Assembly: GCA_000002435.2 (NCBI GenBank)
Contig: CM018793.1
Direction: 5' to 3' (one strand)
DNA length: 64,000 bases
Source of the DNA: Giardia intestinalis
Taxonomy: Eukaryota
Shown: piece after piece, positions 11,483 to 52,364 of the stretch
Layout: every line of letters starts with the position of its first letter
How positions within the stretch are numbered: the first letter of the stretch is position 1
Made by a program: the position numbers and the translations under genes
Notes under the pieces: generated by a model
Databases searched by the model: none
What the model was told of the DNA's origin: nothing
The model's input: the letters and a program-made list of their open reading frames with translations, nothing else

Positions 11483-11949
11483 CTGGGGCCTGTTAGCTAT
11501 TGCGAGCTTGACGAAGGCAGCCCGGACCACGGGGTGCTCCCTTGCACTGGACGGTTTACTCACCACTTAATGGAGGCACTGACCTGTGGCCACAGAGGTC
11601 CGCCACGAGATTGCCCAGAAGCAGCCAAGGTGTCTGTCAAGGGTCCGTGCGCATAAGCTTCACCGGCCTCTCTCAGAGTTTTTACTCTGTCCGTACTAAC
11701 GAGGGGGGACATAAAGAAGCTTATACTCAGGATATGGTTCGAATGGCTCCGGCTGCGAACCATACGTGGCCACTACAACAGGCCGGACCCCGGTGGGAAG
11801 TAGGCCGTCTAACATCGCCTTATCTCTGACGTCCTCCAAGCGAAGAAGCATGCGCGCAAAGCGGTGAGTACATGGGGAAGGGTCTGCCCAAGGCGCCCAC
11901 AGGGTGTTGCAGGGGCCTCTCCGGGAGGAAGGGCCGGAACCCTCCCCGC

Positions 11950-13995: not shown

Positions 13996-14067
13996 TTGAA
14001 GGCTTTTTCTTTCGATTTGAGAATCGAATTTAAAGTGTTTGCAACATATACGCCGCACAAAAAATAA

Positions 14068-19622: not shown

Positions 19623-20145
19623 ATGGCTACTCTCAAAGACCTTCTGAACACCAATCCAATCGGCATGAGCGAGGAGAACTACGCGCAGCTGCTGCGCTCC
19701 CTCGAGACCCTCAACTACGGCCAGCTGCGCCAGTACGTGCTGGCCCGCCTCAAGCCCCTCGTCGACAACGTCCGCAAGCATCTCCAGGAGGACCCTGTCG
19801 GCTCGATCGACCAGGTCCTCGACTTCCAGGACGCCTTCTGCACCAAGGAGCTGATCCAGACCGTCCGCTGGAACCTCGCGCAGTTCCAGGTGAACGCGAA
19901 GAACCCCCGCAAGGCGCCGGCCGTGCGCAGCAAGGAGGCGACGGAGCTCTCGTACGCGACGGACTACAGCTTCCGGCGCATCGTCTACCCGATCGTCGCA
20001 GACCTCGCGAAGATCCTCTACCTCCGCGCCGAGGAGGCGAACGTCCGGAACCCGAACAGCCTCGTGCGCTACATCCCGCTCCTTATCATGTTCAACCAGC
20101 AGAACGCAATCGGCTACCCGCCCCGCGTCGCCTTCCTCGTGACGC
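19623..20145 (+). pseudogene. N-terminal 174-codon fragment of element-A pPolB, truncated by insertion of element B
   Basis: MATLKDLLNTNP...RVAFLVTP aligns residue-for-residue with residues 1-176 of the intact pPolB at 39160; reading frame runs into the TIR of element B after codon TP. Confidence 0.85.
20140..20145. repeat. Target-site duplication GACGCC (left copy)
   Basis: GACGCC immediately flanks both ends of the 26,015 bp insert; the uninterrupted paralogous pPolB has a single GACGCC at the corresponding site (cgtGACGCCtgccgtc). Confidence 0.8.
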
Positions 20146-20627
20146 CAGTAGTATATATCCTTGTGGTGCCCACTTTCGTTTTTTTGGGCCTGCACGGGGC
20201 TGGGCCCAAAAAAACGAAAGCGTCCCCCACAAGTGCGTCTGCGTGTGCCGGTCCGCCCACTAGGCTCCCACACGCTGGCGCTCGTTTACCTACTTTTCAA
20301 CAGAATAAAAAACCTGTAAATTTTCAAAAAAAATCGCGGCCTCCCCCCGGAACCGCCCAGCGTGGTGCCGTGCACGCCGGGAGGAGACCGCGTTGTCCTT
20401 GGATGTGTGTGATGCGTTCGCGCCCGGTTCAGCTGCCGGCCAGCCTGGTCTGCTCCCTGCCCCCGGGCCCGCACGACACCGAAGTGCGACATACAGACAG
20501 CCCGAAAGCAGAAAGCAGGCCAGCGTTATTTTTTTTTTCTGGGAGGCGGCAGTCAGGAAGTGCAAACCATTCTGACGAATTGATTCTGATCTGATTAATT
20601 GATTCAGGGCGGGGAGGAAAATAAAAT
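20146..20627. repeat. Element B left terminal inverted repeat; reaches the start codon of the first gene
   Basis: Exact reverse complement of 45680-46160; inner end GAGGAAAATAAAATATG supplies the promoter/start of ORF 20628. Confidence 0.85.
20172..20219. other. Conserved 18 bp-stem hairpin 26 nt inside the TIR tip (CTTTCGTTTTTTTGGGCC / GGCCCAAAAAAACGAAAG)
   Basis: Perfect inverted repeat with a 12 nt loop; present in all three TIR copies (also 46087-46134 and 52157-52204) with a different loop in the diverged copy. Confidence 0.7.
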
Positions 20628-21074
20628 ATGACGGATGAGCATTTGGGTGGCGGCGACGTTCAACCTGATAGGGACGATGGCGACGCTGGTGTGTCTGGGG
20701 ATAACGGCGTCGTCGTGCAAGAAGACAGCGTCGATCATGCAGGAGATCCTGGACAGACAGAAGGCCCGCCAACAGCAGAGCCAGCCACAGTACCAGCAGG
20801 CGCCGACTCCCCCGCTGTACCAGACGAGCCAATGGATGAGTCAGAGCTACTAGCAGAGCTCGCGTCTGATAAGATTACCATGCCGATGATGGTTATCACT
20901 ATGGGAGGAAGGTTCTTCGACTGCAAGGACGCTGAGCTCACTGTCACGATGAAGGTAAACGACGAGACGATGGAAGGATGCTATGTCTTGATTGGAGATA
21001 CTGTTCAGGAGGGGGAGGATGGAATAAAGTTAATGGGGTTGGTGTTCAAGCGCAAGGACGTGCCGGCAGAGTGA
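20628..21074 (+). CDS. Hypothetical acidic protein (148 aa), first gene of element B
   Basis: ORF starts exactly at the TIR inner end with AAAATAAAATATG; D/E/P-rich N-half. Confidence 0.45.
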   Translation: MTDEHLGGGDVQPDRDDGDAGVSGDNGVVVQEDSVDHAGDPGQTEGPPTAEPATVPAGADSPAVPDEPMDESELLAELASDKITMPMMVITMGGRFFDCKDAELTVTMKVNDETMEGCYVLIGDTVQEGEDGIKLMGLVFKRKDVPAE

Positions 21075-27097: not shown

Positions 27098-27112
27098 GTG
27101 AATGGAATAAAA

Positions 27113-33775: not shown

Positions 33776-36205
33776 ATGACGCGGCGCATCCAGTGCGGAG
33801 GCTCCAGCCTCGAGATCGACCCGCTGACCGGCGAGCTCTCCTTCGAGGACTTCCTGAACACGGCAGAGCCGCCCGAGCAGGACCCGATGCCCGTCCCGAA
33901 GATCGACGTCGGAGGATCGCTGGAGATACTTAACAGCCCGATTGTCGAGGCTATCTTCGGCGACGTCCTTGATAAGCTAGATCTTTTCAAGAAAGATGTC
34001 GACGCGTTCATTGCGATGCTCAAGCAGAAGACGAAGAACGCGATCAATTGGGGGTTAGCGTTAGTCGGCGTGACGACTGTCTCGGGCCTCATGGTCGTCA
34101 TGGTGAGAGAGATCACCATGGCCATCAAGCGCTGGCAGCGAACGAGAGAGTATCAGGACAGTCAGCAGCCAGAAGCCCAGCCGAAGATGATCTCCAAGGA
34201 GAACATGGAGAAGAAGGACGAGATCAGCGAGATTAGCGGCGAAGATGTGGAACCGCCGAGTCTCGGGGAGTACGAGGAGCAGGTGTATGACGAGAACGGC
34301 AACGCCATGTTGAATCCTGACGGCTCGCCGTTGACAAAGACAGTCGTTATCCCCCTCGATCGGGACATCTCCGACCAGTACGACCCAATTCCCGAACCCG
34401 ATGACATCTCAGAAGAGGAAGAGGAGATAGAAGAGGACGAAGTGGAAGAGGAGCCGCCCATCAAGATAACTGATGAGCTGATCAGCGATATCTTCTGGGA
34501 GTTCGACAAGCAGCCCATCCTCAACGAAGAGAACTTCGAGTTCCTCTACGACAGCGGCGTTTACATCATTCACATCCCCCACGTATATATGAAGCGTACA
34601 TGCAAGTTGGGCGGCGACTATGCGGCCTATCCCTGCAAGATGATCGAAAGCATCATCGGACCTGCCTTATGGGACAGATACGGCCATACATTCAAACTGC
34701 GCTTTCCAAACTGCTCACATCAAGTATCTGGTCCCATGGGCACTGAAATCTGTTGTAAGTGTCATATGAATGATTCAGTTCATTGGAGGATACGCGTAAT
34801 ACCGGACGATCAGCCTATATGGTATAACAACGACTGCACGTGCGGCGCTAATTGCAGTTGTCGTTGCCATACCAAGACTCCAGAGAGCGTCTTCACCGTA
34901 ACATACAATTGCGTTTTTTGGTGTGTTCCCTGTGCCACAAGATGTATCTATACCCAGTACGAATCTGACTGTTGGACTCATTACAATTTTTCCACGGATC
35001 GGGGCTTTAGATCAGAAAGTGTCGCCGATAGTAACGGTTTTAGTTCTGCATATATAATACCCGCAGGTAAAAAAATCATACGTTATGAGAGCGAAAACAA
35101 GAACTACCCATATAACTCGCGCGAGTGCTGTGACTTCTGCAAGGTGATGAAGAATTACTTTTACGAAACCGAGGGCTACAAGCTGCACCGCACCAACACA
35201 GAGGTCTACATCTTCTTCTCCCGCGGCGAGAACTCGACAATCTTCGAGAAATGCAACGACCTCTTCAATGGCTATGTGTCCCAGAAGATCCACGACCTTC
35301 TTTCAGACTGGGACGCTGGCAACAATAAGATCATGAATCGACTCAGCATCGACTGTAAGTGCGATGTGAAGCGGCCGCGCTGCACGGACGTCTTCCGAGG
35401 CCTGGGAGAGGTCCATGCTGATACCGTTGGTTTCCTAAAAGGCCATGCCCAGAAGGTCAAATGGATATACCTCCCCGACTACGATTCAAATCTCGGCTTG
35501 CCTTGGTGGTATGACGACCCGCACGACTACCAATCGATCTCGAAGGTCTGCGCATTCGAGGGCTTCCTCGAGCGCAACATCCCCGAGCACGTCATCCGCT
35601 TCTACTCTTACCGCAGACTCACAGACAAGAAGTGGTTCGGGAACCTCTACAAGCAGATCTGCGATGCGATACTCTTGGATTACCCAGACATGCCTGCGGG
35701 CATTGGGGCTGCTGCGCAGAAGTGGAAGGACTTCAACGCATGGAAAGGCATTGATAAGATGCTCAGCGACGTCGTTCCGGTTAAACAGATATATCCCGAA
35801 CAGGTTTATCCTGAGACGCGGCTCTTCACTAGCAAGCCGGCCAACTGGAACCAGCTGAAGCAGCGCGGCGCGAGTTGGACCGGCGAAGTAGAGCCAGAGC
35901 TCGCGTCCTTCAAGCGCTACCTCGACCTCCTCAACAAGTACTACCCGGGCTGGTGGGAGTTCCGGGAGACGCAGGAGCTCGGCTGGTGGGACAATTTCTG
36001 GACCCAGATACCCGACCTCAGGGACCTTGAGCGGACCTCCATCTTCTACTACGAGGACCTCACCATTGACGAGACCCACTATGAGATATACGGCGAACCT
36101 CCTTGGTGGCGCAGTTTCTGGGGGCCGACGATACGAGACAAGGCGCCCGACCCGGAGAGGCCGCGCACATACGAGGAAACAGTTGAAGTGGCAAGTCGAT
36201 ATTAG
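33776..36205 (+). CDS. Cys-rich protein with one predicted TM helix (809 aa), element B
   Basis: Paralogue of 14068-16542 (~55-60% id); TM LALVGVTTVSGLMVVMV; Cys cluster CCKCHMND...CTCGANCSCRCH. Confidence 0.6.
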   Translation: MTRRIQCGGSSLEIDPLTGELSFEDFLNTAEPPEQDPMPVPKIDVGGSLEILNSPIVEAIFGDVLDKLDLFKKDVDAFIAMLKQKTKNAINWGLALVGVTTVSGLMVVMVREITMAIKRWQRTREYQDSQQPEAQPKMISKENMEKKDEISEISGEDVEPPSLGEYEEQVYDENGNAMLNPDGSPLTKTVVIPLDRDISDQYDPIPEPDDISEEEEEIEEDEVEEEPPIKITDELISDIFWEFDKQPILNEENFEFLYDSGVYIIHIPHVYMKRTCKLGGDYAAYPCKMIESIIGPALWDRYGHTFKLRFPNCSHQVSGPMGTEICCKCHMNDSVHWRIRVIPDDQPIWYNNDCTCGANCSCRCHTKTPESVFTVTYNCVFWCVPCATRCIYTQYESDCWTHYNFSTDRGFRSESVADSNGFSSAYIIPAGKKIIRYESENKNYPYNSRECCDFCKVMKNYFYETEGYKLHRTNTEVYIFFSRGENSTIFEKCNDLFNGYVSQKIHDLLSDWDAGNNKIMNRLSIDCKCDVKRPRCTDVFRGLGEVHADTVGFLKGHAQKVKWIYLPDYDSNLGLPWWYDDPHDYQSISKVCAFEGFLERNIPEHVIRFYSYRRLTDKKWFGNLYKQICDAILLDYPDMPAGIGAAAQKWKDFNAWKGIDKMLSDVVPVKQIYPEQVYPETRLFTSKPANWNQLKQRGASWTGEVEPELASFKRYLDLLNKYYPGWWEFRETQELGWWDNFWTQIPDLRDLERTSIFYYEDLTIDETHYEIYGEPPWWRSFWGPTIRDKAPDPERPRTYEETVEVASRY

Positions 36206-36213: not shown

Positions 36214-39090
36214 CTAATAACTGATGTTTATAGCCGGGTTCTTTGCCCAGTACCAGATCTTCACCCGGTTACCTGAGCCAAGGGATCTCGAATTCGACCA
36301 TGTTAATCGTAGGTTAATGTACGAATCGCTAGTATAGTCCGACCACGAGACTATGATTGTGTCATATGTACTAACGCGACAATCATACGCCTGGATCGAG
36401 ACAATGTCGTCATTGGATCTGCTCTGCATGTCGCTCGGAAAGTCCGCGAGATTCAGTCGCATGAACCCGTTGCCGTCGGTCGTCTGACTCGGCACAAAGC
36501 TCTTCAGCAGACACGGCGTCTTGAGGGCGTTGCATATCCGCTCTGAGTAGCTGCACAGCGTCTCACAGTCAGTAATCCGGCTCAGCTGATTAGAGAGCTG
36601 AGAGGTGTTCTGAGCGATAGAAGCCAGAGCACCCGTGATCTTACCAGCTTGCTGACTGACGTTGTTCGAGATGACCTGCACCTGGTTGTAGAGCTGGTTA
36701 TAACAACTAATGTGCGAGTTCAGAGACGATTGGACACCGCTAATGCGATTCGTGTTCCCTAAGACAGAGTCCCAAATGCCGCGCTCATTCGACTCAAGCG
36801 CATTGATGCGAGTCTCCAGAGCAGGCACATTTCCAACATTGCCATCAAGACGAGTAAGGCTCTCTCGAATCTCGCTGATGCTCTGGTCGACTGCTGTCAT
36901 GTGGCGGTCATGTGCATCTAAGGCGTCCTGCGTAGAGTCTCTCAAGCTCTCTAGTCGACCGTTTATCTCTCTCGCTGAATTGTTAACTGCATCGATAGTA
37001 GTCGCGAACTCTGTCGTTGTCCTCTCTAACGAACCTATCTTCACCTCAGATGCTTCCACTGTCCTGCTCATCCGAGACAGCGATGAAGAGAAGGCTGCAT
37101 TGTCTGTCTCAAAGACGCCTACCTTTTCAGCGAGCCTTCGGATGATCTCGTCCTGTGCAGCAAGGCGTTCTTCAAAAGCGCTTGCCTTTGCGCGCTCCTC
37201 TTCTAACTGTCTCTCAAGAGAGTCGATACGCGCTGCCGTTAATTGAGCGCCCACCTTTGCCTCGACCTTCTGCTGGTCGATGAGCTCTCTGAGATAGTTG
37301 TACGCGCCCTCGAGGTCTCTCTTGATCGTCATAGCATCGATCAGACCTCCCTCGAAGTCGGGAACTGAGATGTCGTTCCGCTCAAAGAACTGTGCGACAA
37401 TGGTCATCAGAATCTCCATGCGGTTCCGGAACTCCATGAGACTGTCCTGGTTACCCTCGAGCACGCTCACGCGGTCCTTCGTTTCATCTAACTGAACGCG
37501 GTCATCGTCAGTGTGACTCGTCAAGTCCCGAATACGCTCTTCAGCTCGCTTTACTTCCAAATGGGTCAAGGTCATATCATCGTTTATGTGTGAGAACTCA
37601 TCCCAAATGAACTGGAAGCGTTTATAAAGATCATCAGTCAGAAACTTGTATATCTTGCCGAACTTATAGTCATGCTGGTCGAGGCGGTACTTCGCTTCCA
37701 CTGCATATGTAAGGGCTACCGCAGCGACGACGCCAAGACACGCGTCTATCACATATCCGGTAATCAAGTTAATCAGATTCAGCTTCCGGAAAAGACCGCC
37801 CCCTGCGGCGATAATAGTATCAAACTCGCCGAGCTTATCCTTCATCAGATCTTCCTTCGTGAACGTCTTCTTCTTGATGAGATCGATCTGGCCCTCGGCG
37901 CGCTTGATGCGAGCCTCTAGAGTCTTCCGCTGCTTCTCGAGACGGTTGATCTTTGAATCGGCTTTCATTGCGTGCTTAGCAAGATAACGCGTTTGATGTG
38001 AGATGCGTCCCTTGCTAAGCTTCTTGAGACTCTTAATGGCTGTAACGTTACCGCCGATCTTGTAGTACTTTCCGAGGTGCTTGCGAAGACCATTGTCCTC
38101 GTCGCCGTCCTCATCGAAGCCCTGAAGCTGTCGATAGAGCCACATTGTCTGCTGGTTGAGCGAGGCGGCCATGAAGTCTGCACGAGACACGCGACCATCG
38201 GGAGAGAGCTTCTGATTGCTGCGACCAGCAAGCGACCCGCCGACCATCTGATAGATATACTGGATCTGCTCGATGACCGGTTGGCTCTTCAAATCGTCTT
38301 CGCTAATAGCGCCCGTCACGCCCTTGATGGAGATATCAGCATCTCTTGCAGCTCGCAGCCCAAACGTCTCAGGCTTCTTTATCTTACGTGGCTTCTTCGG
38401 CTCCTTTGGCTTCCTCTCCTTCTTGAGCTTCTTCTTCTTATCTGTAAGCGGCAGAAGGTCCTCCCGAAAAGCATAGTTGCCCCTTACCATCCACGTGACA
38501 GCAAGGATCTTCTGAACAATCGTCAGGTCGCGCAAATAGTCGAGCTTGTTCGGCGCATTCATATAGTCCTCCGGCTGGAAGTTGTTGTTGAAGCCGACCA
38601 TTGGGACCGACTTGACCTTCGGCTTCGAGAGAGTCTGCCCGGTTAGAGACATCGTATAGAGATCCGCAGGCACAGTCTTGAAGCCCAGTATCTCCTCCAT
38701 GAACTTCACTAGAAACGCTAGACACGGACCCTTCACCGGAGACTCTCCGTCGAAGGCATTGCCGTTCCAGTTCTTGATTTCATAGTTCTCATGATTACAA
38801 TAGTACTTGATGCACTTCTTTCGCTGAGCGGGGTCAAGAAGCTGCACGGCGCAGTGTATTGTCTTCCCGCCAAAGTACCCCGATATGCAGTGAGTCTTGC
38901 TGAGATTCAGGTTAGACCCAAACAGAGCTTTGCGTTCGTCAGGCACTAAGGCACACTGCATCACGTAGTCTTTGATGAGGTTATAATGATACGATGAGAG
39001 TGCGCTGACCTTATCTGCGAACGACTGCATCGACTCTGTCGTCATGAAGACGCCGTCGAGCTGCTCCCTGCGGATGATGAGGTTGTTCAT
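36214..39090 (-). CDS. Large coiled-coil protein (958 aa), possible fiber/attachment protein, element B
   Basis: Paralogue of 16544-19561; MNNLIIRREQLDG; basic KKKKLKKERKPKEPKKPRKIKK tract; long heptad region; C-terminal WYWAKNP domain. Confidence 0.55.
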   Translation of the reverse strand: MNNLIIRREQLDGVFMTTESMQSFADKVSALSSYHYNLIKDYVMQCALVPDERKALFGSNLNLSKTHCISGYFGGKTIHCAVQLLDPAQRKKCIKYYCNHENYEIKNWNGNAFDGESPVKGPCLAFLVKFMEEILGFKTVPADLYTMSLTGQTLSKPKVKSVPMVGFNNNFQPEDYMNAPNKLDYLRDLTIVQKILAVTWMVRGNYAFREDLLPLTDKKKKLKKERKPKEPKKPRKIKKPETFGLRAARDADISIKGVTGAISEDDLKSQPVIEQIQYIYQMVGGSLAGRSNQKLSPDGRVSRADFMAASLNQQTMWLYRQLQGFDEDGDEDNGLRKHLGKYYKIGGNVTAIKSLKKLSKGRISHQTRYLAKHAMKADSKINRLEKQRKTLEARIKRAEGQIDLIKKKTFTKEDLMKDKLGEFDTIIAAGGGLFRKLNLINLITGYVIDACLGVVAAVALTYAVEAKYRLDQHDYKFGKIYKFLTDDLYKRFQFIWDEFSHINDDMTLTHLEVKRAEERIRDLTSHTDDDRVQLDETKDRVSVLEGNQDSLMEFRNRMEILMTIVAQFFERNDISVPDFEGGLIDAMTIKRDLEGAYNYLRELIDQQKVEAKVGAQLTAARIDSLERQLEEERAKASAFEERLAAQDEIIRRLAEKVGVFETDNAAFSSSLSRMSRTVEASEVKIGSLERTTTEFATTIDAVNNSAREINGRLESLRDSTQDALDAHDRHMTAVDQSISEIRESLTRLDGNVGNVPALETRINALESNERGIWDSVLGNTNRISGVQSSLNSHISCYNQLYNQVQVISNNVSQQAGKITGALASIAQNTSQLSNQLSRITDCETLCSYSERICNALKTPCLLKSFVPSQTTDGNGFMRLNLADFPSDMQSRSNDDIVSIQAYDCRVSTYDTIIVSWSDYTSDSYINLRLTWSNSRSLGSGNRVKIWYWAKNPAINISY

Positions 39091-39159: not shown

Positions 39160-42100
39160 ATGGCAACCACTAGGGAACTCCTGACCATGCATCCCCAGCA
39201 GATGTCCGAGGACCAGCTCGCCCAGCTCAAGACGTCGCTCGAGACGCTCAACTACACCCAGCTCCGACAATACGTGCTCGGCCGCGTCAAGCCCCTCATC
39301 GAGAACGTCCGCAAGCACATCCAGGAGGACCCCGTCGGCTCGGTAGATCAAGTCCTCGACTTCCAGGACGGCTTCTGGTCCAAGGACCTGATCCAGCGCG
39401 TCCGCTGGAACCTCGCCCAGTTCAGGGTAAACGAGAAGAACCCCCGCAGAGTGCCGACCAGCAGAGCGAAGGAGGCGCTGGAGCTGAACTACATGACCGA
39501 CTACTCCTTCCGGCGCATCGTCTACCCGATCGTCGCAGACCTCGCCAAGGCTCTTTATCTCCGCGCAGAGGAAGCTAACCGCCGCAACACCGACGCTTCG
39601 GTGCGCTATGTCCCGCTTCTTGTCATGTTCAACCAGCAGAACACGTTCGGCTATCCGCCCCGCGTCGCCTTCCTCGTGACGCCTGCCGTCATCACGTTCC
39701 TCCGCGGATGGAAGGTCTTCGCCGACGGAGACGACGCCCACCAGCACTACCTCAACGCGGTCACGAGGGACGCGGCGCAGATCCACGGCGTCCAGTCCGC
39801 AGAGCCTGGCGAGATGCTCTACTGCTTCAACTGGGACCCCATTTTCGCCGGCACAGAGAGCGACCCCGAGAACCCCCGCAACGCCATGTTCTCCTTCGGG
39901 ACGATGTACGAGCCCGTCTTCATCTTCCAGATCCAGATCATCCGCACCAGAGAGGGCCAGCGGAAGCTCATCCACCGCAGGGGAGGTATGGCGCCCTTCA
40001 CGAACGACTCGTTCTTCGACCTCACGCGCTACCAGATCGAGAAGACAGGCGAGGGCTTCAAGAACAGCAAGGACACGTGTTTCCTCTACGCCCTCAAGCA
40101 GAGCGGCGTGCTGAGCGACGACGAGATACGGGCCGCCGCCTTCCACATCAACCAGGCCTCTGTCACCTTCGCGATGATCGACGCCATCGGCAAGCAGCTC
40201 TTCGTCTGCTTCCACATGCACATGGCAGACAGGGTCGTCCTCAAGGGCGCGCAGAAGAACCGCAAGGTTCCGCCGGGCGTCGCGATCCGGAACATCCACC
40301 TGGGCTTCGACTTCAACCACTACTACATCTTCGACGAGAAGCTCCCCTACAGCAAGACGTACGTGAACAACGCAGCCGTCATGATGGAGCACCACACATA
40401 CCCCGCGAACACGAACCTGCGCGAGGTCAACGTCAGAGACACCTTCCACCCGCAGACCAGGGAGCCGACGAAGAAGGTCGTCTTCGGCTACCACCGCGAC
40501 GACGACCCCCATACATGCTCGAGTCGGGACCTCATCCTCTCGCTCCACAAGCAGGGCCTCCTCAAGCCCATCCGCTCCGACAGCCTGCTGGCCATCAAGG
40601 AGTCCTTCATCCGCGAAGAGCACTACGAGGAGGACGCGCTCAACTACTGCGAGGACCAGCTGAAGGAGATCACGCCGAAGAAGAAGACCCAGTCGCCCAA
40701 GGACGTCTGGTTCGCAGACTTCGAGACGACGACCGACGGGGACCAGCACCACCCGTTCCTCCTCTGCTTCCACGGGATCAACAACGTCACGGGGACGTAC
40801 TGGGCGAAGGACTACAACAGCATCGGGGACATGGTCCGAGCGGCCTTCAACCGCCTCGCGATGCTCAACCGGCCCCAGCTGGTGTACTTCCACAACCTCA
40901 ACTACGACGGGGCCTTCGTCCTCCCGTACTTCGACGTCAAGAAGGACAGCATCGTCACCCTCGGGGCGAGCAAGATCATCGCGTTCACGATCCATGTCCG
41001 GCTGAGCGACGACCGGAAGAACAAGCCGATCCCGATCCACTTCCGGGACTCCTACGCCCTGATCACGGCTCCCCTCAGCAAGTTCGGCAAGATGTTCAAC
41101 CTCAACGTGCACAAGGAGGTCCTCCCGTACTCGTTCTACACCCAGGACAACGTCAAGAAGCTGTGCCAGGGCTTCAAGCCGACGCTCGAGGAGTACCTCT
41201 CGTACGAGATCGAGAGCAGGAGGGAGGAGCTCGAGCAGCTGCTCCGTACGCTGCCGGAGATGCTGGTAATAGACAGGGTCGACGCCTTCAAGTACGCCCA
41301 CTACTACTGCGCAAGAGACTGCCACGTGCTCAAGGACGGGGTGATGGGCTTCAGACGCCAGCTCCTCGAGGTCACGGGCATCGACGCCTTCACATCCATG
41401 ACGCTCCCGAGCATTGCCTACAACTTCCTCATCAACGAGAAGTGCTTCGAGGGCTGCTTCAACCTCAACACGGCGCCGCTCCTCTTCGTACGCCAGTGCG
41501 TGACGGGCGGGCGCTGCATGCTCCGGTGCAACGAGAAGCAGTACGTCGAGGGCGAGGTCATGGACTTCGACGCCGTCTCGCTGTATCCGTCTGCCATGGC
41601 GCGCCTCCACACCCTCATGGGCCACCCGAAGATCGTCGACCCCGAGAAGCACGACCTCGGCTGGCTCCTCCGGCAGGACGGCTGCTTCCTCGAGATCGAC
41701 ATCGAGGTCGTCCCGAAGCAGCTCGACTTCCCCCTCATCAACAGGCAGACGGAGAAGGGGAGGCACTTCTCGAACGAGCCGGGCCCGATGTTCGCCGACA
41801 ACATCACGATCGAGGACATCATCGAGTACCACAAGGTCCCGATGAACCGGATCAGGGTCCTCCGGGGCTACTACTACGACGAGGGCAAGAACACGAACAT
41901 CCAGGCCGTCATCCGGAAGATCTTCGAAGCGCGGCTCAAGTTCAAGGCGGAGGGCAACCCGCTCGAGAGCATCTACAAGCTCATCATGAACAGCTGCTAC
42001 GGGAAGAGCATCCTCAAGCCCGTCTACAAGCGGATGAACACGGTCGACCACGCGGGCCTTGAGAGAGAGCTCCTCGACAACTCGGCCGATGTCCTCTGCT

Positions 42101-42756
42101 GGGAGCCGCTCTACGACGGCGGCCGCTTCCTCCTCAAGCAGAGCAAGCCCCTTCTGGAGGCGAACAGCTTCCCGACGTTCGGGGTCCAGGTGCTCTCGAT
42201 GAGCAAGCGCATCATGACGGAGGTGATGGCGACGGCCCAGGACCACGGGCTCCCGATCTACTACACAGACACGGACAGCATCCACATCGACAAGGCGTCC
42301 ATCGAGCCCCTCCGGAACTACTTCCACGCGCGCTTCCAGCGGGAGCTCATCGGGAAGAACCTCGGCCAGTTCCACTCAGACTTCCCCGACAGCCCCTCCG
42401 GGGAGATGTTCGTCAGCCGCTACTTCATCGGCGTCGGCAAGAAGGCATACCTCGACATCCTCCAGGACAGCCAGAACAACATGAGCTACCACGCGCGCCT
42501 CAAGGGCATCCCCGAGCAGGCGATCCTCAACGAGGCCCGGCAGCGCTGCTCCCACAACTTCCTCGGCGGGCTCTACAACCTCTACGCGGACCTCTACAAC
42601 GGCGTGCCCCAGACCTTCAACCTCATCTACGACGGCGCGGTGCGCTTCGTGCGAGACGCCAGCCTCGCCTACCGCTGCAGGGACGACTTCAAGCGGAGAG
42701 TCATCTTCGAGAGGGAGCCCGATGAGCCCCTGAACATATCAAAGCTGATGCAGTAA
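39160..42756 (+). CDS. Protein-primed family B DNA polymerase (pPolB), 1198 aa, with ~520 aa N-terminal extension (putative terminal-protein region)
   Basis: Exo I FADFETTT; Exo II YFHNLNYDGAFVL (phi29 YFHNLKFDGAFII); Exo III YAHYYCARDCHVL; motif A FDAVSLYPSAM (phi29 DVNSLYPAQM); motif B KLIMNSCYGKS (KLMLNSLYGKF); motif C YYTDTDSIH (YCDTDSIH). Confidence 0.9.
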   Translation: MATTRELLTMHPQQMSEDQLAQLKTSLETLNYTQLRQYVLGRVKPLIENVRKHIQEDPVGSVDQVLDFQDGFWSKDLIQRVRWNLAQFRVNEKNPRRVPTSRAKEALELNYMTDYSFRRIVYPIVADLAKALYLRAEEANRRNTDASVRYVPLLVMFNQQNTFGYPPRVAFLVTPAVITFLRGWKVFADGDDAHQHYLNAVTRDAAQIHGVQSAEPGEMLYCFNWDPIFAGTESDPENPRNAMFSFGTMYEPVFIFQIQIIRTREGQRKLIHRRGGMAPFTNDSFFDLTRYQIEKTGEGFKNSKDTCFLYALKQSGVLSDDEIRAAAFHINQASVTFAMIDAIGKQLFVCFHMHMADRVVLKGAQKNRKVPPGVAIRNIHLGFDFNHYYIFDEKLPYSKTYVNNAAVMMEHHTYPANTNLREVNVRDTFHPQTREPTKKVVFGYHRDDDPHTCSSRDLILSLHKQGLLKPIRSDSLLAIKESFIREEHYEEDALNYCEDQLKEITPKKKTQSPKDVWFADFETTTDGDQHHPFLLCFHGINNVTGTYWAKDYNSIGDMVRAAFNRLAMLNRPQLVYFHNLNYDGAFVLPYFDVKKDSIVTLGASKIIAFTIHVRLSDDRKNKPIPIHFRDSYALITAPLSKFGKMFNLNVHKEVLPYSFYTQDNVKKLCQGFKPTLEEYLSYEIESRREELEQLLRTLPEMLVIDRVDAFKYAHYYCARDCHVLKDGVMGFRRQLLEVTGIDAFTSMTLPSIAYNFLINEKCFEGCFNLNTAPLLFVRQCVTGGRCMLRCNEKQYVEGEVMDFDAVSLYPSAMARLHTLMGHPKIVDPEKHDLGWLLRQDGCFLEIDIEVVPKQLDFPLINRQTEKGRHFSNEPGPMFADNITIEDIIEYHKVPMNRIRVLRGYYYDEGKNTNIQAVIRKIFEARLKFKAEGNPLESIYKLIMNSCYGKSILKPVYKRMNTVDHAGLERELLDNSADVLCWEPLYDGGRFLLKQSKPLLEANSFPTFGVQVLSMSKRIMTEVMATAQDHGLPIYYTDTDSIHIDKASIEPLRNYFHARFQRELIGKNLGQFHSDFPDSPSGEMFVSRYFIGVGKKAYLDILQDSQNNMSYHARLKGIPEQAILNEARQRCSHNFLGGLYNLYADLYNGVPQTFNLIYDGAVRFVRDASLAYRCRDDFKRRVIFEREPDEPLNISKLMQ

Positions 42757-42762
42757 ATTTAC

Positions 42763-43794
42763 TTAGCGCTCCATAATCTCCTTGAACCTCCCAAAGGTTA
42801 GAGGCTCAGCATTGAAGAACTTCTTCTTCCTTGCCCACGCAGAGAGACGATCGAAGAAAGCCTCAGACGATATCTGCTTGTCCCCAATGGTAAAGCTGTA
42901 ACGACGATCATGATACTCATCAATATCGAACCAGGCGTCTGTGATCGCAAACTGACGCGTAACAGCAGCTGCCTTTATCAAACAGTACTGGCCACCGCTC
43001 CATATGGTTCCCACATGACCCGGCTCTATCGCGACAACTGGGTTGTAAATGCCCTTATGCTCGAGGAGGAACTCGTTCGTCTGCCTGATCGTGTCAAGCG
43101 CATCGACCTCGCACAGACGATGAGGATCATCCGAGGCCCTGTCCTTGATGTGGTCCTCACAGACAGCCGGGTCGATAGCGAAGCGCACATGGAAGGCCGG
43201 AAGGATGCCTGCGCGGAGCATGTAGTGGTCGATCAGGTAGTGGAGGTACTGGCCTTGCTCCTTCGTGATGTAGCCGTCACTCATCTTGAAGAGGATGAAC
43301 GCGCTAGTAGACGGCAGCCAGCGGTCGAAGATGATGAAGTCGTACTGCTGATACTCTTCGGCAAAACGGCAATGAAGAAGCTGCTTCCCCAGTGCATGGA
43401 CCACCTGCTCCTGGAACTGGAAAGCAAGCTCCCTGGGGTTCTTGTAGTACTCCTCGAGGGTGATGCCTCCGTTCTGTCCAAAGTGGTTGTCTGCCACGGC
43501 CTCCTCGATGATGGTAGCTTCGAAGCCTTGGTCGATCAGGTACTTCTTGAGATGCTTGCAGAAGGTGGACTTGCCTGCGCCGATGGGACCGTCAACAACG
43601 ATGATGCGAGGATCAATGACAACAGGCGGCACAACTCTCGAACTGAAATCGCTGAGCTTCCATACGAGGTTATCGTCCATGTTGATCCCGATGTCAACTG
43701 ACTCCAGAAAGTCTTCGACTGGCCAGTGTGATGATTTACTATCGATGAGGCCTGGCTCAGCTGGCTGGTTCTGGGGCTCGTAGTACTGGCTCAT
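42763..43794 (-). CDS. P-loop nucleoside/nucleotide kinase (thymidylate kinase / deoxynucleoside kinase family)
   Basis: IVVDGPIGAGKSTF P-loop and FDRWLPSTSAF (DRY/ERS-type motif, DRYxxSxxAY); ORF trimmed to MSQYYEPQ, whose ATG abuts GGGAAAATAAAATG. Confidence 0.55.
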   Translation of the reverse strand: MSQYYEPQNQPAEPGLIDSKSSHWPVEDFLESVDIGINMDDNLVWKLSDFSSRVVPPVVIDPRIIVVDGPIGAGKSTFCKHLKKYLIDQGFEATIIEEAVADNHFGQNGGITLEEYYKNPRELAFQFQEQVVHALGKQLLHCRFAEEYQQYDFIIFDRWLPSTSAFILFKMSDGYITKEQGQYLHYLIDHYMLRAGILPAFHVRFAIDPAVCEDHIKDRASDDPHRLCEVDALDTIRQTNEFLLEHKGIYNPVVAIEPGHVGTIWSGGQYCLIKAAAVTRQFAITDAWFDIDEYHDRRYSFTIGDKQISSEAFFDRLSAWARKKKFFNAEPLTFGRFKEIMER

Positions 43795-43867
43795 TTTATT
43801 TTCCCAGTAGTGCACGTCTCAAGAGCCAAACCATTTTAAAGTGAATTCTCCCCACGGAAATAAAAGT

Positions 43868-44839: not shown

Positions 44840-45679
44840 TTACTTTGCAAACAGCTTTACGATGTCTTCCTTGTCTCCGGCAATGGCCAACGCAAAAACC
44901 CTACCATTATTGATGTCCTTCTCCTTATCTGCCAACAAAGCAGCACAAGCAGCATGGCCATTTCTCACAGCCCACTCGAAAGCAGTACCACGGGCGTTAT
45001 TGCATAACCTGGCCTCCTTATCTAACAACAGCTTGACGATGTCTGCGTAACCACAGGATGCTGCTAGCATGAGAGCGGTCCAGCCGTCGTTATCCTTCAT
45101 GCCTGCCTCCTTCTCCGCTAATAGGTTAGCGCACTTAGTGTGACCCTTACACGCAGCCCACATGAGAGCAGTCCTACCATCTTTATTCTTCATGCCGGCC
45201 TCCTTCTCTAACAACAGCTTAACGCTGTATGCGGAATCCTTGGATGCTGCTATTATGAGAGCCGACCCGCAGCATCTCGCACATATACCGGCCTCCTTCT
45301 TCACTAGCAGGTCAACGCACTTAAAATTAAACTTACTCACAGCCCACATGAGGGCGGTCCTACCGATGACATCCTTCATACCAGCCTCCTTCTCTAACAG
45401 CAGCTTAACGCAGTCTGTATAGCCTTCGGATGCTGCTATCATGAGAGCCGTCAAGCCGTGTCCATCACTCATACCAGCCTCCTTCTCCACTAGCAGGTTA
45501 GCGCAGTTAGTATGACCCTCCCTCGCAGCCCACATGAGGGCAGTCCAGCTGTTGAAATCCCTCAGGCCAGCCTCCTTGTCTACTAGTTCCCTGACGACAT
45601 CGATGTTACCTTGCGCTGCTGCTTCTATGAGATCCCTAAAACCATATCCTGGCGACTTGTATTCTCGATAAGCCTTCAT
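44840..45679 (-). CDS. Ankyrin-repeat protein (8-9 ANK repeats), last gene of element B
   Basis: Repeated G.TALM.AA..GH...V.LLLEKEAG..D units; start codon sits exactly at the inner end of the right TIR (GGAGGAAAATAAAATATG). Confidence 0.8.
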   Translation of the reverse strand: MKAYREYKSPGYGFRDLIEAAAQGNIDVVRELVDKEAGLRDFNSWTALMWAAREGHTNCANLLVEKEAGMSDGHGLTALMIAASEGYTDCVKLLLEKEAGMKDVIGRTALMWAVSKFNFKCVDLLVKKEAGICARCCGSALIIAASKDSAYSVKLLLEKEAGMKNKDGRTALMWAACKGHTKCANLLAEKEAGMKDNDGWTALMLAASCGYADIVKLLLDKEARLCNNARGTAFEWAVRNGHAACAALLADKEKDINNGRVFALAIAGDKEDIVKLFAK

Positions 45680-46160
45680 ATTTTATTTTCCTCCCCGCCC
45701 TGAATCAATTAATCAGATCAGAATCAATTCGTCAGAATGGTTTGCACTTCCTGACTGCCGCCTCCCAGAAAAAAAAAATAACGCTGGCCTGCTTTCTGCT
45801 TTCGGGCTGTCTGTATGTCGCACTTCGGTGTCGTGCGGGCCCGGGGGCAGGGAGCAGACCAGGCTGGCCGGCAGCTGAACCGGGCGCGAACGCATCACAC
45901 ACATCCAAGGACAACGCGGTCTCCTCCCGGCGTGCACGGCACCACGCTGGGCGGTTCCGGGGGGAGGCCGCGATTTTTTTTGAAAATTTACAGGTTTTTT
46001 ATTCTGTTGAAAAGTAGGTAAACGAGCGCCAGCGTGTGGGAGCCTAGTGGGCGGACCGGCACACGCAGACGCACTTGTGGGGGACGCTTTCGTTTTTTTG
46101 GGCCCAGCCCCGTGCAGGCCCAAAAAAACGAAAGTGGGCACCACAAGGATATATACTACT
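45680..46160. repeat. Element B right terminal inverted repeat
   Basis: Exact reverse complement of 20146-20627; ends ...CACCACAAGGATATATACTACT then TSD. Confidence 0.85.
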
Positions 46161-46166
46161 GACGCC
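46161..46166. repeat. Target-site duplication GACGCC (right copy)
   Basis: See 20140-20145. Confidence 0.8.
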
Positions 46167-49100
46167 CGCCGTCATCACGTTCCTCCGCGGCTGGAAGGTC
46201 TTCGCAGACGGCGACGACGCGCACCGGCACTACCTCAACGCGGTTACGAAGGACGCGGCGCAGATCCACGGCGTCCAGTCTGCAGAGCCCGGCGAGATGC
46301 TCTACTGCTTCAACTGGGACCCGGTCTTCGGGGGCACTGAGAGCGACCCCGAGAACCCCCACAACGCGCTCTTCTCGTTCGGGACGATGTACGAACCCGT
46401 CTTCTTCTTCCAGATCCAGATCGTGCGCATGAAGGATGGCCAGCGGAAGTTCATCCACCGGCGCGGCGGCCTGGCCCCCTTCACGAACGACTCGTTCTTC
46501 GACCTCAACCGCTACCAGATCGAGCGGACAGGCGAAGGCTTTCGGAACAGCAAGGACACGTGCTTCCTCTACGCTCTCAAGCAGAGCGGGCAGCTGAACG
46601 ACGAGGAGATCAAGGCCGCGGCGCTCCACATCAACCAGGCGGCGGTCACGTTCGCGATGGTCGACGCGATCGGCAAGCAGCTCTTCATCTGCTTCCACAT
46701 GCACATGCCGGACAGGGTCGTCCTCCGGGGCGCACAGAAGGGCCGCAAGCTCCCGCCCGGCGTCGCACTCCGGAACATCCAGATAGGCTTCGACTTCAAC
46801 CACTACTACATCTTCGACGAGAAGCTCCCCTACAGCAAGGCGTACGTGAACCACGCGTCCGTGATGATGGAGCACAACGCGTACCCGGAGAACGCGAACG
46901 TCCGCGAGGTCAGCGTCCGGAACACCTTCCACCCGGAGACCCGGGAGCCGATGCAGAAGGTCGTCTTCGGCTACCACCGCGACGACGACCCCCACACGTG
47001 CACGAGCCGCGACCTCCTCCTCTCGCTCCACAAGCAGGGCCTCCTCCGCCCGATCCGCTCAGACGACCTCCTCGCCGTCAAGGAGTCCTTCATCCGCGAG
47101 GAACACTACGCGGAGGACAACCTCGAGTTCTGCGAGAACCAACTCAAGAAGATCGAGCCCAAGAAGAAGCAGGCCCCGCCGAAGGACGTCTGGTTCGCGG
47201 ACTTCGAGACGACGACCGACGGGGACCAGCACCACCCGTTCCTCCTCTGCTTCCACGGGGCGAACAATGTGACGGGGACTACTGGGCGAAGGACTACACA
47301 GCATCGGGGACATGGTCCAGCGGCCTTCCCGCCTCGCGACCTCAACCGGCCCCAGCTGGTTACTTCACAACCTCAACTACGACGGGGCCTTCGTCCTCCC
47401 GTACTTCGACGTCAAAAGGACAGCATCGTCACCCTCGGGGCGAGCAAGATCATCGCGTTCACATCCACATCCGACTGAGCGACGACCGGAAGAACAAGCC
47501 GATCCCGATCCACTTCCGGGACTCCTACGCCCTGATCACGGCGCCCCTCAGCAAGTTCGGGAAGATGTTCAACCTCGACGTCCACAAGGAGGTCCTCCCG
47601 TACTCGTTCTACACGCAGGAGAACGTCCGCAAGCTCGCAGAGGGCTACCGGCCGACCCTCGAGGAGTACCTCTCGTACGAGATGGAGAGCAGACGGACCG
47701 AGCTCGAGCAGCTGGTCCGCATGCTGCCGGGGATGCTCGTCGAGGACCGCGTCGATGCGCTCCGCTACGCCCACTACTACTGCGCGCGGGACTGTCACGT
47801 GCTCAAGGAGGGCGTCCTCCGCTTCCGGCAGCAGCTCCTCGAGGTCACCGGGATCGACGCGTTCACGTCCATGACTCTCCCGAGCGTCGCGTACAACTAC
47901 CTCATCAACGAGAAGTGCTTCGAGGGCTGCTTCAACCTCAACACGGCTCCGCTTCTCTTCGTGCGCCAGTGCGTGACGGGCGGGCGCTGCATGCTCCGGA
48001 ACAACGAGAAGCAGTACGTCGAGGGCGAGATCATGGACTTCGACGCGGTCTCCCTGTACCCGTCCGCAATGGCGCGCATCTACACCCTCAAGGGCCACCC
48101 GAAGGTCGTCGACCCCGAGAAGCACGACCTCGGCTGGCTCCTCCGCCAGGACGGCTGCTTCCTCGAGATAGACATTCAGATCGTCCCGAAGACCCTCGAC
48201 TTCCCCCTCATCAACCGCCAGACGGAGAAGGGCCGCCACTTCTCAAACGAGCCAGGCCCGATGTTCGCGGACAACATCACGATCGAGGACATCATCGAGT
48301 ACCACAAGGTCCCGATGAACCGAATCCGCGTCCTCCGGGGCTACTACTACGACGAGGGGAAGAACTTCGCCATCCAGACCGTTATCCGGAAGCTCTTCGA
48401 TACGCGCCTCAAGTTCAAGGCGGAGGGCAACCCCCTTGAGAGCATCTACAAGCTCATCATGAACAGCTGCTACGGGAAAAGCATCCTCAAGCCCGTCTTC
48501 AAGCGGATGAACACCGTCGACCGGGCCGGGCTCGAGCGGGAGCTCCTCGACAACTCCGCCGACATCCTCTGCTGGGAGCCGCTCTACGACGGCGGCCGCT
48601 TCCTCCTCAAGCAGAGCCGCCCGCTCCTCATGGCGAACAGCTTCCCGACGTTCGGCGTCCAGGTCCTCTCGATGAGCAAGCGCATCATGACGGAGGTGAT
48701 GGCAACGGCCCAGGACCACGCGCTCCCGATCTACTACACGGACACCGACAGCATCCACATCGACAAGCGGTCAATAGAGCCGCTCCGGAACTACTTCCAC
48801 GCGCGCTTCCACCGCGAGCTCATCGGCAAGAACCTCGGCCAGTTCCACTCGGACTTCCCCGACAGCCCCTCCGGCGAGATGTTCGTCAGCCGCTTCTTCG
48901 TCGGCGTCGGCAAGAAGGCGTACCTCGACATCCTCCAGGACAGCCAGGGCCACATGAGCTACCACGCGCGCCTCAAGGGCATCCCCGAGCAGGCGATCCT
49001 CAACGAGGCCCGCCAGCGCTGCGCCCAGAACTTCCTCGGCGGGCTCTACAACCTCTACGCCGACCTCTACAACGGCGTCCCCCAGACCTTCAACCTCATC

Positions 49101-49229
49101 TACGACGGCGCCGTCCGCTTCGTCCGCGACGCGCACCTCGCCTACCGCTGCCGCGACGACTTCAAGCGCCGCGTCATCTTCGAGAAGGAGCCCGACGCGC
49201 CCCTGAACGTCGTCAAGCTCATGCAGTGA
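46167..49229 (+). pseudogene. C-terminal ~1020 codons of element-A pPolB, separated from its N-terminus by element B and carrying several frameshifts (~47270-47470)
   Basis: Resumes at ...AVITFLRGWKVF exactly where 19623-20145 stops; nucleotide comparison with 40741-41030 shows at least six 1-3 nt indels, so the ORF track splits it into 46075-47478 and 46560-49229 in different frames; downstream motifs (KLIMNSCYGKS, YYTDTDSIH) intact. Confidence 0.85.
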
Positions 49230-49231
49230 AT

Positions 49232-50293
49232 TTACTCCATGCTGCTCTCCTCGTCGCGCGCAAGGACCTCCTGGAACTCATCAAACGACAAGGCCATCAT
49301 CTGCATGCGGCGCTTGAACGGATTGACGAACCTCCCATATGCGGTCCAATCGCAGAGCTCGTTGAAGAAGACAAACGCGTTGATCCTGCGCATCCCGATC
49401 TGGACGAAGTAGCGGCGGTCCTCGCCGAGGAAGAGAGTATTCTCGACAACGTACTGGCGCGTCACCCTCGCGGCCGCGACGAGCGAGAACTGGTTCCCCG
49501 CCGAGAAGGCCTTGCTCCACTCGGTGTCCGCTGGATGGTTCAGGTTGAAGACCGGCGTGTAGACGCCCTTGTGCTTGAGGAGGAACTCGTTCGTCTTACT
49601 CACGACCCCGAGCGCGTCCTCCTCGCACTGGCGGTGTTCCTCCTCAGCAGCGCGCTGGACGATACGCTGCGCACAGATCAGCGGGTCCGTCGCAAAGCGG
49701 ACGTGTGTCGCCGGAAGGATCCCCGCGTACGACATGTAGACGTCGATCAGGTAGTGGAGGTACATCGCCTGGCGGCCCGTAATATGGCCCTCCTGCACCT
49801 GGAAAAGGACGAACGCACTCGTCGAGGGCAGCCAGCGGTCGAAGATGACGAGGTCGTAGTCCTTGTACTTGTCCGTGAAGCGGTACTCGAGGAGCTGGTC
49901 TGCGAGAGCATGTGTGACGGCGAGCTGGAAGCGGTACGCGTTGGCGTGCGGGTCCCTGTAATACTCGTCGAGCGTGATCCCGTACGCGCTGAAGCACTCG
50001 AGCCCCACAACCTCCTCGATGACCACTGCCTTCAGCCCGCTGTCCTGGGCGTGCTCGACAAGGCGGCGGCAGAAGAGGGACTTGCCGGCCCCGATGGGTC
50101 CGTCGACGACAATCATGCGCGGATCGACGCACGCCGGCGGGATGACGGATGCGTGCCGCGCCAGGCTCAACCCGCGAAGAGTGGACAGCTTCGAGTTCAC
50201 CTCGAGCAGCTCCTCGGACACGTCGTAGTAGAGGCTCGAGTGGCGGACAAGCTCGGTCCCGGGCTGGTTCTGGGGCTCGTAGTACAGGCTCAT
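49232..50293 (-). CDS. P-loop nucleoside/nucleotide kinase (TMPK/dNK family), element A copy
   Basis: IVVDGPIGAGKSLF, FDRWLPSTSAF; orthologue of 42763-43794; trimmed to MSLYYEPQ after GGAAATAAAATG. Confidence 0.55.
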   Translation of the reverse strand: MSLYYEPQNQPGTELVRHSSLYYDVSEELLEVNSKLSTLRGLSLARHASVIPPACVDPRMIVVDGPIGAGKSLFCRRLVEHAQDSGLKAVVIEEVVGLECFSAYGITLDEYYRDPHANAYRFQLAVTHALADQLLEYRFTDKYKDYDLVIFDRWLPSTSAFVLFQVQEGHITGRQAMYLHYLIDVYMSYAGILPATHVRFATDPLICAQRIVQRAAEEEHRQCEEDALGVVSKTNEFLLKHKGVYTPVFNLNHPADTEWSKAFSAGNQFSLVAAARVTRQYVVENTLFLGEDRRYFVQIGMRRINAFVFFNELCDWTAYGRFVNPFKRRMQMMALSFDEFQEVLARDEESSME

Positions 50294-50365
50294 TTTATTT
50301 CCTGGCGGCCTCCCCAATAAATGCCAAAGCATTTGAAAGTGAATTCTCCCGCCAAAAATAAAAGT

Positions 50366-50617
50366 ATGGCAGGCCACCTCCTCAGCAGCAAGGGGACCAC
50401 GAAAAACGAGAACAAGCTCTTCACCCAGAAGCCGACGCCCTTCTACGACGCAGGCACCGTCCCGGTCCGCCTCGCGTCCGTGCCCTTCGAGAACCGCAAC
50501 GAGCCGATTCGCGTCCAGATCGACGAGCCGCCCAAGCCCCGCCCTCGCGCAGGCCTCGTCCGCACCCGCAAGAGGCTGATCCCGAGGAACCGCTGGAAGA
50601 AGAACACGTACCAGTAA
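50366..50617 (+). CDS. Small protein with Arg/Lys-rich C-terminus (83 aa), element A copy
   Basis: MAGHLLSSKGT...; orthologue of 43868-44122. Confidence 0.45.
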   Translation: MAGHLLSSKGTTKNENKLFTQKPTPFYDAGTVPVRLASVPFENRNEPIRVQIDEPPKPRPRAGLVRTRKRLIPRNRWKKNTYQ

Positions 50618-51804: not shown

Positions 51805-52230
51805 ATGCGAATCAATTCCCGAATCAGAATCAAATCAAAATCAATTCGTCACAATTAATTGCACGAGGGGTCTCACAGGGCTCAGAAAAAAAAAATTACG
51901 CTGACCTGCCGGGCTGTCTGTATGTCGCACCTCGGTGTCGTGCGGGCCCGACAGGCTGGCTGGCTGGCCGGCAGCTGAACTGAGCCTCGAACGTACCACA
52001 CCCACAACGCGTCTCCTCCCGGCGTGCACAGTTCACGCTGGGCGGTTCCGGGGGGAGGCGCGTTTTTTTTAGAAAAATTACAGGTTTTTTATTCTATCAA
52101 AAATCATAATGTTTGGACGGGAGATTGCAGCAGGGAGAACAAAATCGCGGCGGTCGTTTTCGTTTTTTTGGGTAAGGCCCCCGGCCGGCCCAAAAAAACG
52201 AAAGCGGGCGCCTCGAGGATATATACTACT
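51805..52230. repeat. Diverged third copy of the element TIR = right terminus of the old element A (ends ...GAGGATATATACTACT)
   Basis: ~80% identity with 45680-46160 including the AATCAATT repeats, poly-A tract, GTCGCAC...GGTGTCGTGCGGGCCCG block, AAAATTACAGGTTTTTTATTCT and the stem-loop; same orientation as the B right TIR. Confidence 0.75.
52157..52204. other. Stem-loop of the element-A TIR (stem conserved, loop TAAGGCCCCCGGCC differs from the B copies)
   Basis: TTTTCGTTTTTTTGGG...CCCAAAAAAACGAAAG; covariation confined to the loop. Confidence 0.6.
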
Positions 52231-52364
52231 GGCGTGCTCCCTGTAGAGGTGATCGCGCTCTCTACGTTGATCGAGCACGATATTGTACAACTTCTTCACT
52301 TTGAGGTTGCGGCGCCTTATTTGGGTTCTAGCTCGTTCAAAGAGCTCCCCGTCGGTTCTAACAG

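Follow-up and report, generated by a model that had tools for sequence, protein, structure and literature searches.

A Polinton-type DNA polymerase of Giardia intestinalis with a predicted OTU-type protease and a candidate terminal protein in its N-terminal extension

A stretch of 64,000 nucleotides from Giardia intestinalis (contig CM018793.1 of assembly GCA_000002435.2, called the window below) was analysed with respect to the gene of a family B DNA polymerase of the protein-primed type (pPolB) that begins with a long N-terminal extension. The gene lies in a Polinton-like mobile element, here named element A, which spans 20147-46160 (26.0 kb), is complete and bounded by terminal inverted repeats (TIRs), and is inserted at codon ~175 of a second, older pPolB gene, copy B. 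The extension is composite and not one domain: it combines an OTU-type cysteine protease with a fast-evolving stretch upstream of it, which probably serves as the protein primer of replication, the terminal protein (TP). The borders of element A and the two polymerase genes are the following.

20147..20634, + strand: left TIR of element A, 488 bp long and matching the reverse complement of 45673-46160 at 99.8% identity, terminus 5'-AGTAGTATATATCC
45673..46160, - strand: right TIR of element A
20141..20146 (left) and 46161-46166 (right): perfect 6-bp target-site duplication (TSD) GACGCC; the uninterrupted equivalent in copy A is CTCGTGACGCCTGCCGTC
39160..42756, + strand: intact pPolB gene of element A (copy A), 1198 amino acids (aa), product XP_001707488.1 / UniProt A8BF59
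19623..20146, + strand: codons 1-175 of the copy B pPolB gene, cut from the rest by element A
46161..49226, + strand: copy B pPolB gene from codon ~175 to its end, in frame to 47193

Polintons reportedly have long TIRs, 5'-AG...CT-3' termini and a 6-bp TSD. Element A has these TIR, terminus and TSD features, with the termini 5'-AGTAGTATATATCC...GGATATATACTACT-3' (AGTAG...CTACT), and carries a pPolB gene. The tip of its TIRs, AGTAGTATATAT (20147-20160 and 46147-46160), shows a 3-nt AGT-AGT reiteration followed by (TA)n. Compared with copy A, copy B lacks 10 bases at 47280-47463 (eight 1-base deletions and one 2-base deletion) in the Exo domain (aa 546-610). It is a pseudogene, in which the polymerase is both split and frameshifted. 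The annotated gene GL50803_0092663 (19623-20594, + strand, 323 aa) is a chimera of the 175 copy B codons and a readthrough into the left TIR. The nested insertion of one Polinton into another, the near-identical TIRs and the intact TSD indicate that the element family was recently mobile in Giardia.

The pPolB open reading frame (ORF) of element A is single and unbroken, with 1198 codons and a stop. Its product (39160..42753) is identical to XP_001707488.1 / A8BF59, which is annotated as 'putative DNA polymerase' of Giardia duodenalis WB (assemblage A), and the identical 1198-aa protein is on record in several Giardia isolates, in an 11-member 90% cluster with strain P15 among them. Pfam DNA_pol_B_2 covers residues 569-974 with an E-value of 5e-37 and 128.3 bits against a gathering cut-off of 25.8. 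All polymerase motifs are intact, namely Exo I (FADFETTT, 518), Exo II (YFHNLNYD, 576), Exo III (YCARDC, 716), Pol A (DAVSLYPS, 804), Pol B (NSCYGK, 944) and Pol C (YTDTDS, 1035). The gene product is a protein-primed family B polymerase.

The extension comprises 517 aa (39160-40710). An earlier reading of the sequence, the original prediction, had placed Exo I at residue ~528, while the motif actually begins at 518; the long extension ahead of the polymerase core was borne out, with 517 residues in one continuous frame. The ~85% identity between copies A and B that had been given for this region is close to the 82.7% aa identity over residues 176-517, where B has no stop codon, but does not apply to the first 175 codons, which are separated from the rest of B and reach 74% aa and 79.6% DNA identity. 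At the DNA level, 39677-42763 of A and 46160-49236 of B are 89.1% identical. The ratio of non-synonymous to synonymous substitution rates (dN/dS; Nei-Gojobori) between A and B was 0.40 for residues 1-175, 0.16 for 176-276, 0.27 for 277-400 and 0.34 for 401-517. These values of 0.16-0.40 indicate that the whole extension is coding sequence under constraint, with purifying selection in all sub-regions. The extension was divided as follows, all on the + strand; pLDDT is the predicted local distance difference test score of the structure models.

39160..39489: residues 1-110, predicted helical and basic (isoelectric point, pI, 9.15), with homologues in Giardia-like sequences only; dN/dS as given for residues 1-175
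39490..39945: residues 111-262, candidate D1 (TP core), alpha/beta, positioned directly upstream of D2
39946..39987: residues 263-276, basic and disordered linker whose last residues are R273-R274-G275-G276 (pLDDT <50, model residues 10-25)
39988..40359: residues 277-400, D2, cysteine protease domain resembling viral OTU (vOTU) proteases
40078..40080: Cys307 (KDTCFLYAL), predicted nucleophile, invariant in 26/26 sequences, at the N-terminus of helix alpha1 (first residue of model helix 58-66)
40318..40320: His387 (FNHYYIF), predicted catalytic His, invariant in 26/26 sequences, first residue of model strand 138-141
40360..40710: residues 401-517, connector between protease and exonuclease domain, with the helix motif SRDLILSLHKQGLLKPIRSD
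40711..40734: residues 518-525, Exo I motif FADFETTT, start of the polymerase core

Standard searches with the extension yielded little. Pfam searches of the whole extension and its sub-segments gave noise only up to an E-value of 10, phmmer found no match among PDB sequences, and a word-indexed search of 5.8 billion proteins returned only 4 Giardia sequences. When 1.84 billion representatives were searched exhaustively with a profile, 30 proteins came up. Among these, the matches that were not Giardia-like aligned only over residues ~255-420 and belonged to proteins of 1000-1400 aa, in which the segment lies upstream of the polymerase; DNA_pol_B_2 followed the D2 segment in 8/8 distant matches scanned. 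Homologues of residues 1-186 were limited to Giardia-like sequences.

An alignment of 26 pPolB N-terminal segments with 19-28% identity to Giardia was used for D2. It has three invariant columns, one Leu, Cys307 and His387. AlphaFold2 (AF2) was run on residues 250-425 with this alignment and gave a model with a pLDDT of 79.8 and above 90 in the core. The structures listed in the fold comparison of the model were Otu2, nairovirus vOTUs and the protease of maize rayado fino virus (MRFV; 7mia). Foldseek against BFVD ranked giant-virus OTU proteins and tymo- and betaflexivirus polyproteins at the top, with weak E-values of ~1e-3. TYMV PRO of turnip yellow mosaic virus (4a5u) and other viral OTU proteases come from RNA-virus replicase polyproteins and share ~11% identity with D2. 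The window protein gave no match to Pfam OTU (PF02338) or Otubain (PF10275), the D2 profile found noise only among PDB sequences, and only 3 matches, none usefully named, were obtained with it in the word-indexed set of 5.8 billion proteins. In the model, the OTU relation of D2 is thus visible by fold and not by sequence. Residues ~277-400 are almost certainly a vOTU-like cysteine protease, and according to the modelled placement of its Cys and His the protease is very likely active.

A corresponding domain order has been described by structure modelling for the eukaryotic pPolBs of polintons, of mavirus/virophage and of cytoplasmic plasmids, namely D1(TP)-D2(vOTU)-Exo-Pol (Krupovic, Kuhn, Fischer & Koonin 2024, PNAS; PMC11071308 / PMC11161782). 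There, D1 is homologous to the TPs of PRD1 and adenovirus and has a 4(5)-stranded sheet with two helices (beta-alpha-beta-beta-alpha-beta, LF/PAD-like); the linking Ser or Tyr sits between alpha2 and beta4, in a loop that has Gly or Pro close by (PMC11071308). D2 is a vOTU with its Cys in alpha1 and its His in beta4, and cleavage is proposed between TP and vOTU (PMC11071308). The Giardia D2 agrees with this description in every point. The original prediction had interpreted the whole ~520 aa as a TP-like priming domain, and an OTU protease match with no TP features was to count as its refutation. An OTU fold was indeed found, and residues 277-400 are lost to the priming domain; yet OTU is a known partner of TPs, and in the light of the published TP-vOTU-Exo-Pol architecture the match argues for a fused TP upstream and not against it. 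The priming domain would be retained, by position and motifs, for the region before the protease.

The Giardia protein resembles polinton pPolBs in its domain order, the placement of Cys and His in an OTU-fold D2, the unstructured linker and the Exo-Pol core with its Pfam signature, as well as in the TIRs and 6-bp TSD of its element. It differs in that an extra helical N-terminus of ~110-145 aa is present and the candidate linking loop is preceded by an insertion; its D1 is a candidate only. In the yeast cytoplasmic linear plasmids pGKL1/pGKL2 the TP is fused N-terminally as well and, once cleaved off, remains on the DNA as a ~26-kDa N-terminal fragment (cited in PMC11071308), compared to a predicted 32 kDa in Giardia; unlike the Giardia element, these are extrachromosomal cytoplasmic plasmids without an integrase. 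The Polinton-derived family B2 polymerases of Entamoeba histolytica have been characterised biochemically only for the shortest member (813 aa), as a polymerase (Pastor-Palacios et al. 2012, PMC3511435). The N-terminal domains of this member were not resolved (PMC3511435).

Directly before D2, most of the 26 pPolBs have the pair G-[GSA], and three have A-G. The pair is preceded by Arg or Lys, as in IHRRGG|MAPF of Giardia and RRRRGG|LAPW and TRRRGG|WAPF of its nearest relatives. OTU, tymoviral and arteriviral proteases prefer Gly-Gly-type residues at P2-P1. The ubiquitin C-terminus is RLRGG, and the RRGG junction resembles this tail as well as the sites at which OTU-type proteases of tymoviruses and arteriviruses cut. 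A cut after Gly276 would give a product of 32.1 kDa with a pI of 8.9. From the sequence, RRGG276|M277 is tentatively proposed as the vOTU cleavage site, with our opinion close to evenly divided. A term search of the text of PMC11071308 found no mention of the G-[GSA] junction motif. It is conceivable, though somewhat doubtful, that G-[GSA] is the long-sought TP-release site, cut by the protein's own OTU, and a mimic of the ubiquitin tail, or alternatively that the pre-protease region is a new, non-PRD1-like priming domain.

For D1, the AF2 model of the full extension was built from only six near-identical sequences and reached a pLDDT of 41.7. The low-confidence secondary structure of D1 consists of strands at 148-157, 168-172 and 251-261 and helices at 112-142 and 175-181. 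The hydrophobic strand VFIFQIQII (253-261) closes D1 and is followed by the basic disordered linker; other pPolBs have both as well. A G-[ST](-D) motif lies about 30-53 residues upstream of the junction; G[ST], counted over the 50 residues before the junction, occurs in 12/21 sequences, while ~17% would be expected per sequence. In Giardia the motif reads G231-T232-E-S234-D-P. Two places on the + strand were considered for the DNA-linking hydroxyl.

39853..39861: T232-E233-S234 in FAG-TESD-PENP, best candidate for the DNA-linking loop, aligned by MAFFT with the G-S-D of other pPolBs
39907..39909: Y250 before the last D1 strand, alternative candidate linking residue by visual analogy to PRD1 Tyr190, without statistical support

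The surroundings of Y250, G247-T-M-Y250-E-P (GTMY-EPVFIFQI), resemble by eye the FMTY190-DIIIDAV context of PRD1 TP P8 (from AY848689). The role proposed here, a hydroxyl in the loop before the last strand, is the same as in P8 (Tyr190) and adenovirus pTP (Ser580), which are encoded by separate genes and are not fused. The search for a priming Ser, Thr or Tyr suggested in the original prediction thus led to T232, S234 and Y250 as candidates, with an enriched G[ST] motif but non-significant similarity in the alignments. Two other D1 motifs seen by eye, DASV-RY and NW-D...G[ST], were dropped as the similarity tests gave them no statistical support. For a phi29-type all-helical TP in residues 1-145 no evidence was found; the literature puts polinton TPs in the PRD1 class (PMC11071308).

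The position before an apparently active vOTU, the terminal strand with the basic linker, the G-[ST] loop and the Y250 context together suggest that D1 is a TP, which we regard as somewhat more probable than the contrary. The TP part would be ~111-262, with residues 1-276 possibly as the released product. As a whole, the gene likely codes for a polyprotein that processes itself and serves the replication of a Polinton/Maverick-type element; it would consist of helical residues 1-110, the D1 TP, the RRGG linker, the D2 vOTU, the connector and Exo-Pol (518-1198). The polymerase would join the first nucleotide to a hydroxyl of the D1 loop (T232 or S234, alternatively Y250) at the end of the linear element, opposite the 3' end of the TIR. 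In phi29, PRD1 and adenovirus, terminal repeats are used for sliding-back or jumping-back, and the reiteration in the 5'-AGT-AGT-A tip could be a terminal repeat of this type. The OTU protease would then cut after Gly276, which would leave a TP of ~32 kDa covalently on the 5' end, and the freed vOTU-polymerase of ~107 kDa would elongate by processive strand-displacement synthesis. The analysis shows the unbroken ORF, the pPolB motifs, the OTU fold with an invariant Cys and His, purifying selection throughout the extension and the TIRs and TSD of the element; that D1 is a TP, which residue links the DNA, where the cut falls and in which order the events take place, we infer.

Several observations weigh against this polyprotein model. 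The pPolB is known here from sequence, and the identity of D1 as TP was not demonstrated by fold or sequence. Between Giardia D1 (residues 100-265) and the regions that precede D2 in 23 other pPolBs, neither phmmer nor jackhmmer found a match; with phmmer --max the best E-value against these 23 regions was 0.095, shuffled Smith-Waterman alignments of Giardia D1 gave a best p of 0.02, which is uncorrected and not significant over 23 comparisons, and hhalign against the other pre-D2 regions returned a probability of 0.1%. Giardia 1-276 and the family D1 alignment gave a probability of 0.2% and an E-value of 0.3 with PRD1 TP in hhalign. The G-S-D column stems from a MAFFT alignment of sequences that are not independent and have no detectable similarity, and G-[GSA] may be no more than a turn in the structure where the OTU domain begins. 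With regard to D2, Pfam OTU (E 0.046) and Otubain (E 0.004) each matched just 1/26 family members, and no acidic residue is present at His+2 (H387-Y-Y-I-F-D-E; family consensus H-Y-F-x-x-[DE]). The latter makes a Cys-His dyad as in TYMV PRO likely, and the classical third residue is not required for vOTUs. Among themselves, too, the pre-D2 regions detect each other only within small subgroups. As this is so and TPs are known to lack sequence similarity, the negative sequence tests do not discriminate.

The negative fold and homology searches for a TP would also fit a different arrangement, in which the protease is real but residues 1-276 are a lineage-specific, non-PRD1 domain for DNA-end binding, nuclear import or host interaction, and priming takes place elsewhere in the protein or by another protein of the element. 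The confinement of homologues of residues 1-186 to Giardia-like sequences points in this direction, as do the ~145-aa helical extension and the ~45-aa insertion before the G-T-E-S-D loop that set Giardia apart from other pPolBs, and replacement of N-terminal pPolB domains is documented, e.g. by the unrelated 'DX' in place of D2 in kalilo (PMC11071308). We nevertheless consider this arrangement unlikely. TPs of different lineages lack sequence similarity (PMC11071308), so negative searches are expected either way, while the terminal strand, the basic linker and the G-[GSA] junction are common to other pPolBs. Moreover, the surveyed eukaryotic pPolBs with an active vOTU all carry D1 upstream (PMC11071308), and a protease that releases nothing would be odd.

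It is also improbable that the primer is not released by the OTU domain and that this domain acts mainly as a deubiquitinase or antagonist of host defence or cuts elsewhere, so that the whole 138-kDa protein would stay on the DNA end. Viral OTUs commonly double as deubiquitinases and an uncleaved pPolB-TP is documented for kalilo-type mitochondrial plasmids and bidnavirids (PMC11071308). The uncleaved systems, however, have no vOTU or have replaced catalytic residues (PMC11071308), whereas Cys307 and His387 are invariant here, RRGG, which resembles a ubiquitin tail, stands in a disordered linker exactly where D1 and D2 meet, and the stretch from D2 to Exo I has no other G-G pair. An artefact of annotation or assembly, with two genes read as one or non-coding sequence open by chance, might be suspected in a GC-rich region with long spurious ORFs in other frames. 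It is extremely improbable in view of the continuous frame, the recurrence of the D2-plus-polymerase order in distant pPolBs, the same 1198-aa product in independent assemblies and isolates and the dN/dS of 0.16-0.40; the last two effectively refute a gene fusion or spurious ORF.

Outside D1 and D2, AF2 predicted helices in residues 1-40 with a pLDDT of 81-85. Residues 1-110 possibly serve in DNA binding or nuclear targeting or as a polymerase-docking extension of the TP. The helix motif SRDLILSLHKQGLLKPIRSD of the connector (40519-40587, residues ~454-476) recurs in distant pPolBs, e.g. as TPLRVIEAMETRRILVPIPPDD and SSYDMINILFKNNLFTPM.

Among the other genes of element A, a 347-aa ORF at 27098-28141 (+ strand) matched Pfam rve with an E-value of 6e-4 and 20.4 bits, below the cut-off of 32.6 bits, and is likely the integrase of the element judging from its sequence. 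It adjoins large ORFs at 24479-27097 and 28138-30459 with no Pfam match. An 809-aa Cys-rich protein (33776-36205, + strand) and a 958-aa coiled-coil protein (36214-39090, - strand) belong to no Pfam family; homologous stretches in B at 14044-16542 and 16544-19561 have ~72-83% DNA identity in patches. Capsid, ATPase or protease hallmarks were not recognised among the large ORFs of element A by the Pfam scan, and no structural search was made. Directly downstream of the element A polymerase lies a deoxynucleoside-kinase-like gene (42763-43815, - strand; Pfam dNK, E 1.4e-15), and copy B is likewise followed by DNA with 74-83% similarity to this gene, at about 49232-50377 (- strand). This kinase gene is an unusual Polinton cargo and is of interest since Giardia relies on deoxynucleoside salvage. 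Near the right TIR, a 279-aa ORF resembling ankyrin repeats (44840-45679, - strand) was found, which contains ~186-bp tandem repeats (45011-45396 vs 45197-45582) that are 76% identical.

With respect to the element that carries copy B, the sequence at 51883-52230 is ~83% similar to the element A TIR and ends in ATATATACTACT at 52219-52230. This sequence probably marks the right end of element B; a matching left terminus was not found within the window. Just outside this TIR-like terminus lies one arm of a 2278-bp inverted duplication with 100% identity (9219-11496 and 52358-54635). A short fragment resembling pPolB is contained in it (about aa 517-600; 11410-11617 and 52360-52444). The inverted duplication could have arisen by rearrangement or by very recent duplication, or it could be an artefact of the assembly.

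In summary, an unannotated stretch of 517 aa has been parsed into parts with a predicted catalytic pair (Cys307/His387), a predicted cleavage at Gly276|Met277 and a few candidates for the priming residue. Polinton replication is seen no differently after this than before. The layout has been known since 2024 (PMC11071308), and Giardia adds a further case that is consistent with it and offers details for testing. If the G-[GSA] pair is indeed the site of TP release, the protease, the site and the product size of this step would be directly testable, and the G-S-D loop (T232/S234) would mark the DNA-linking position. The Giardia protein extends the TP-vOTU-pPolB architecture, with the TP as a probable part, to a diplomonad.

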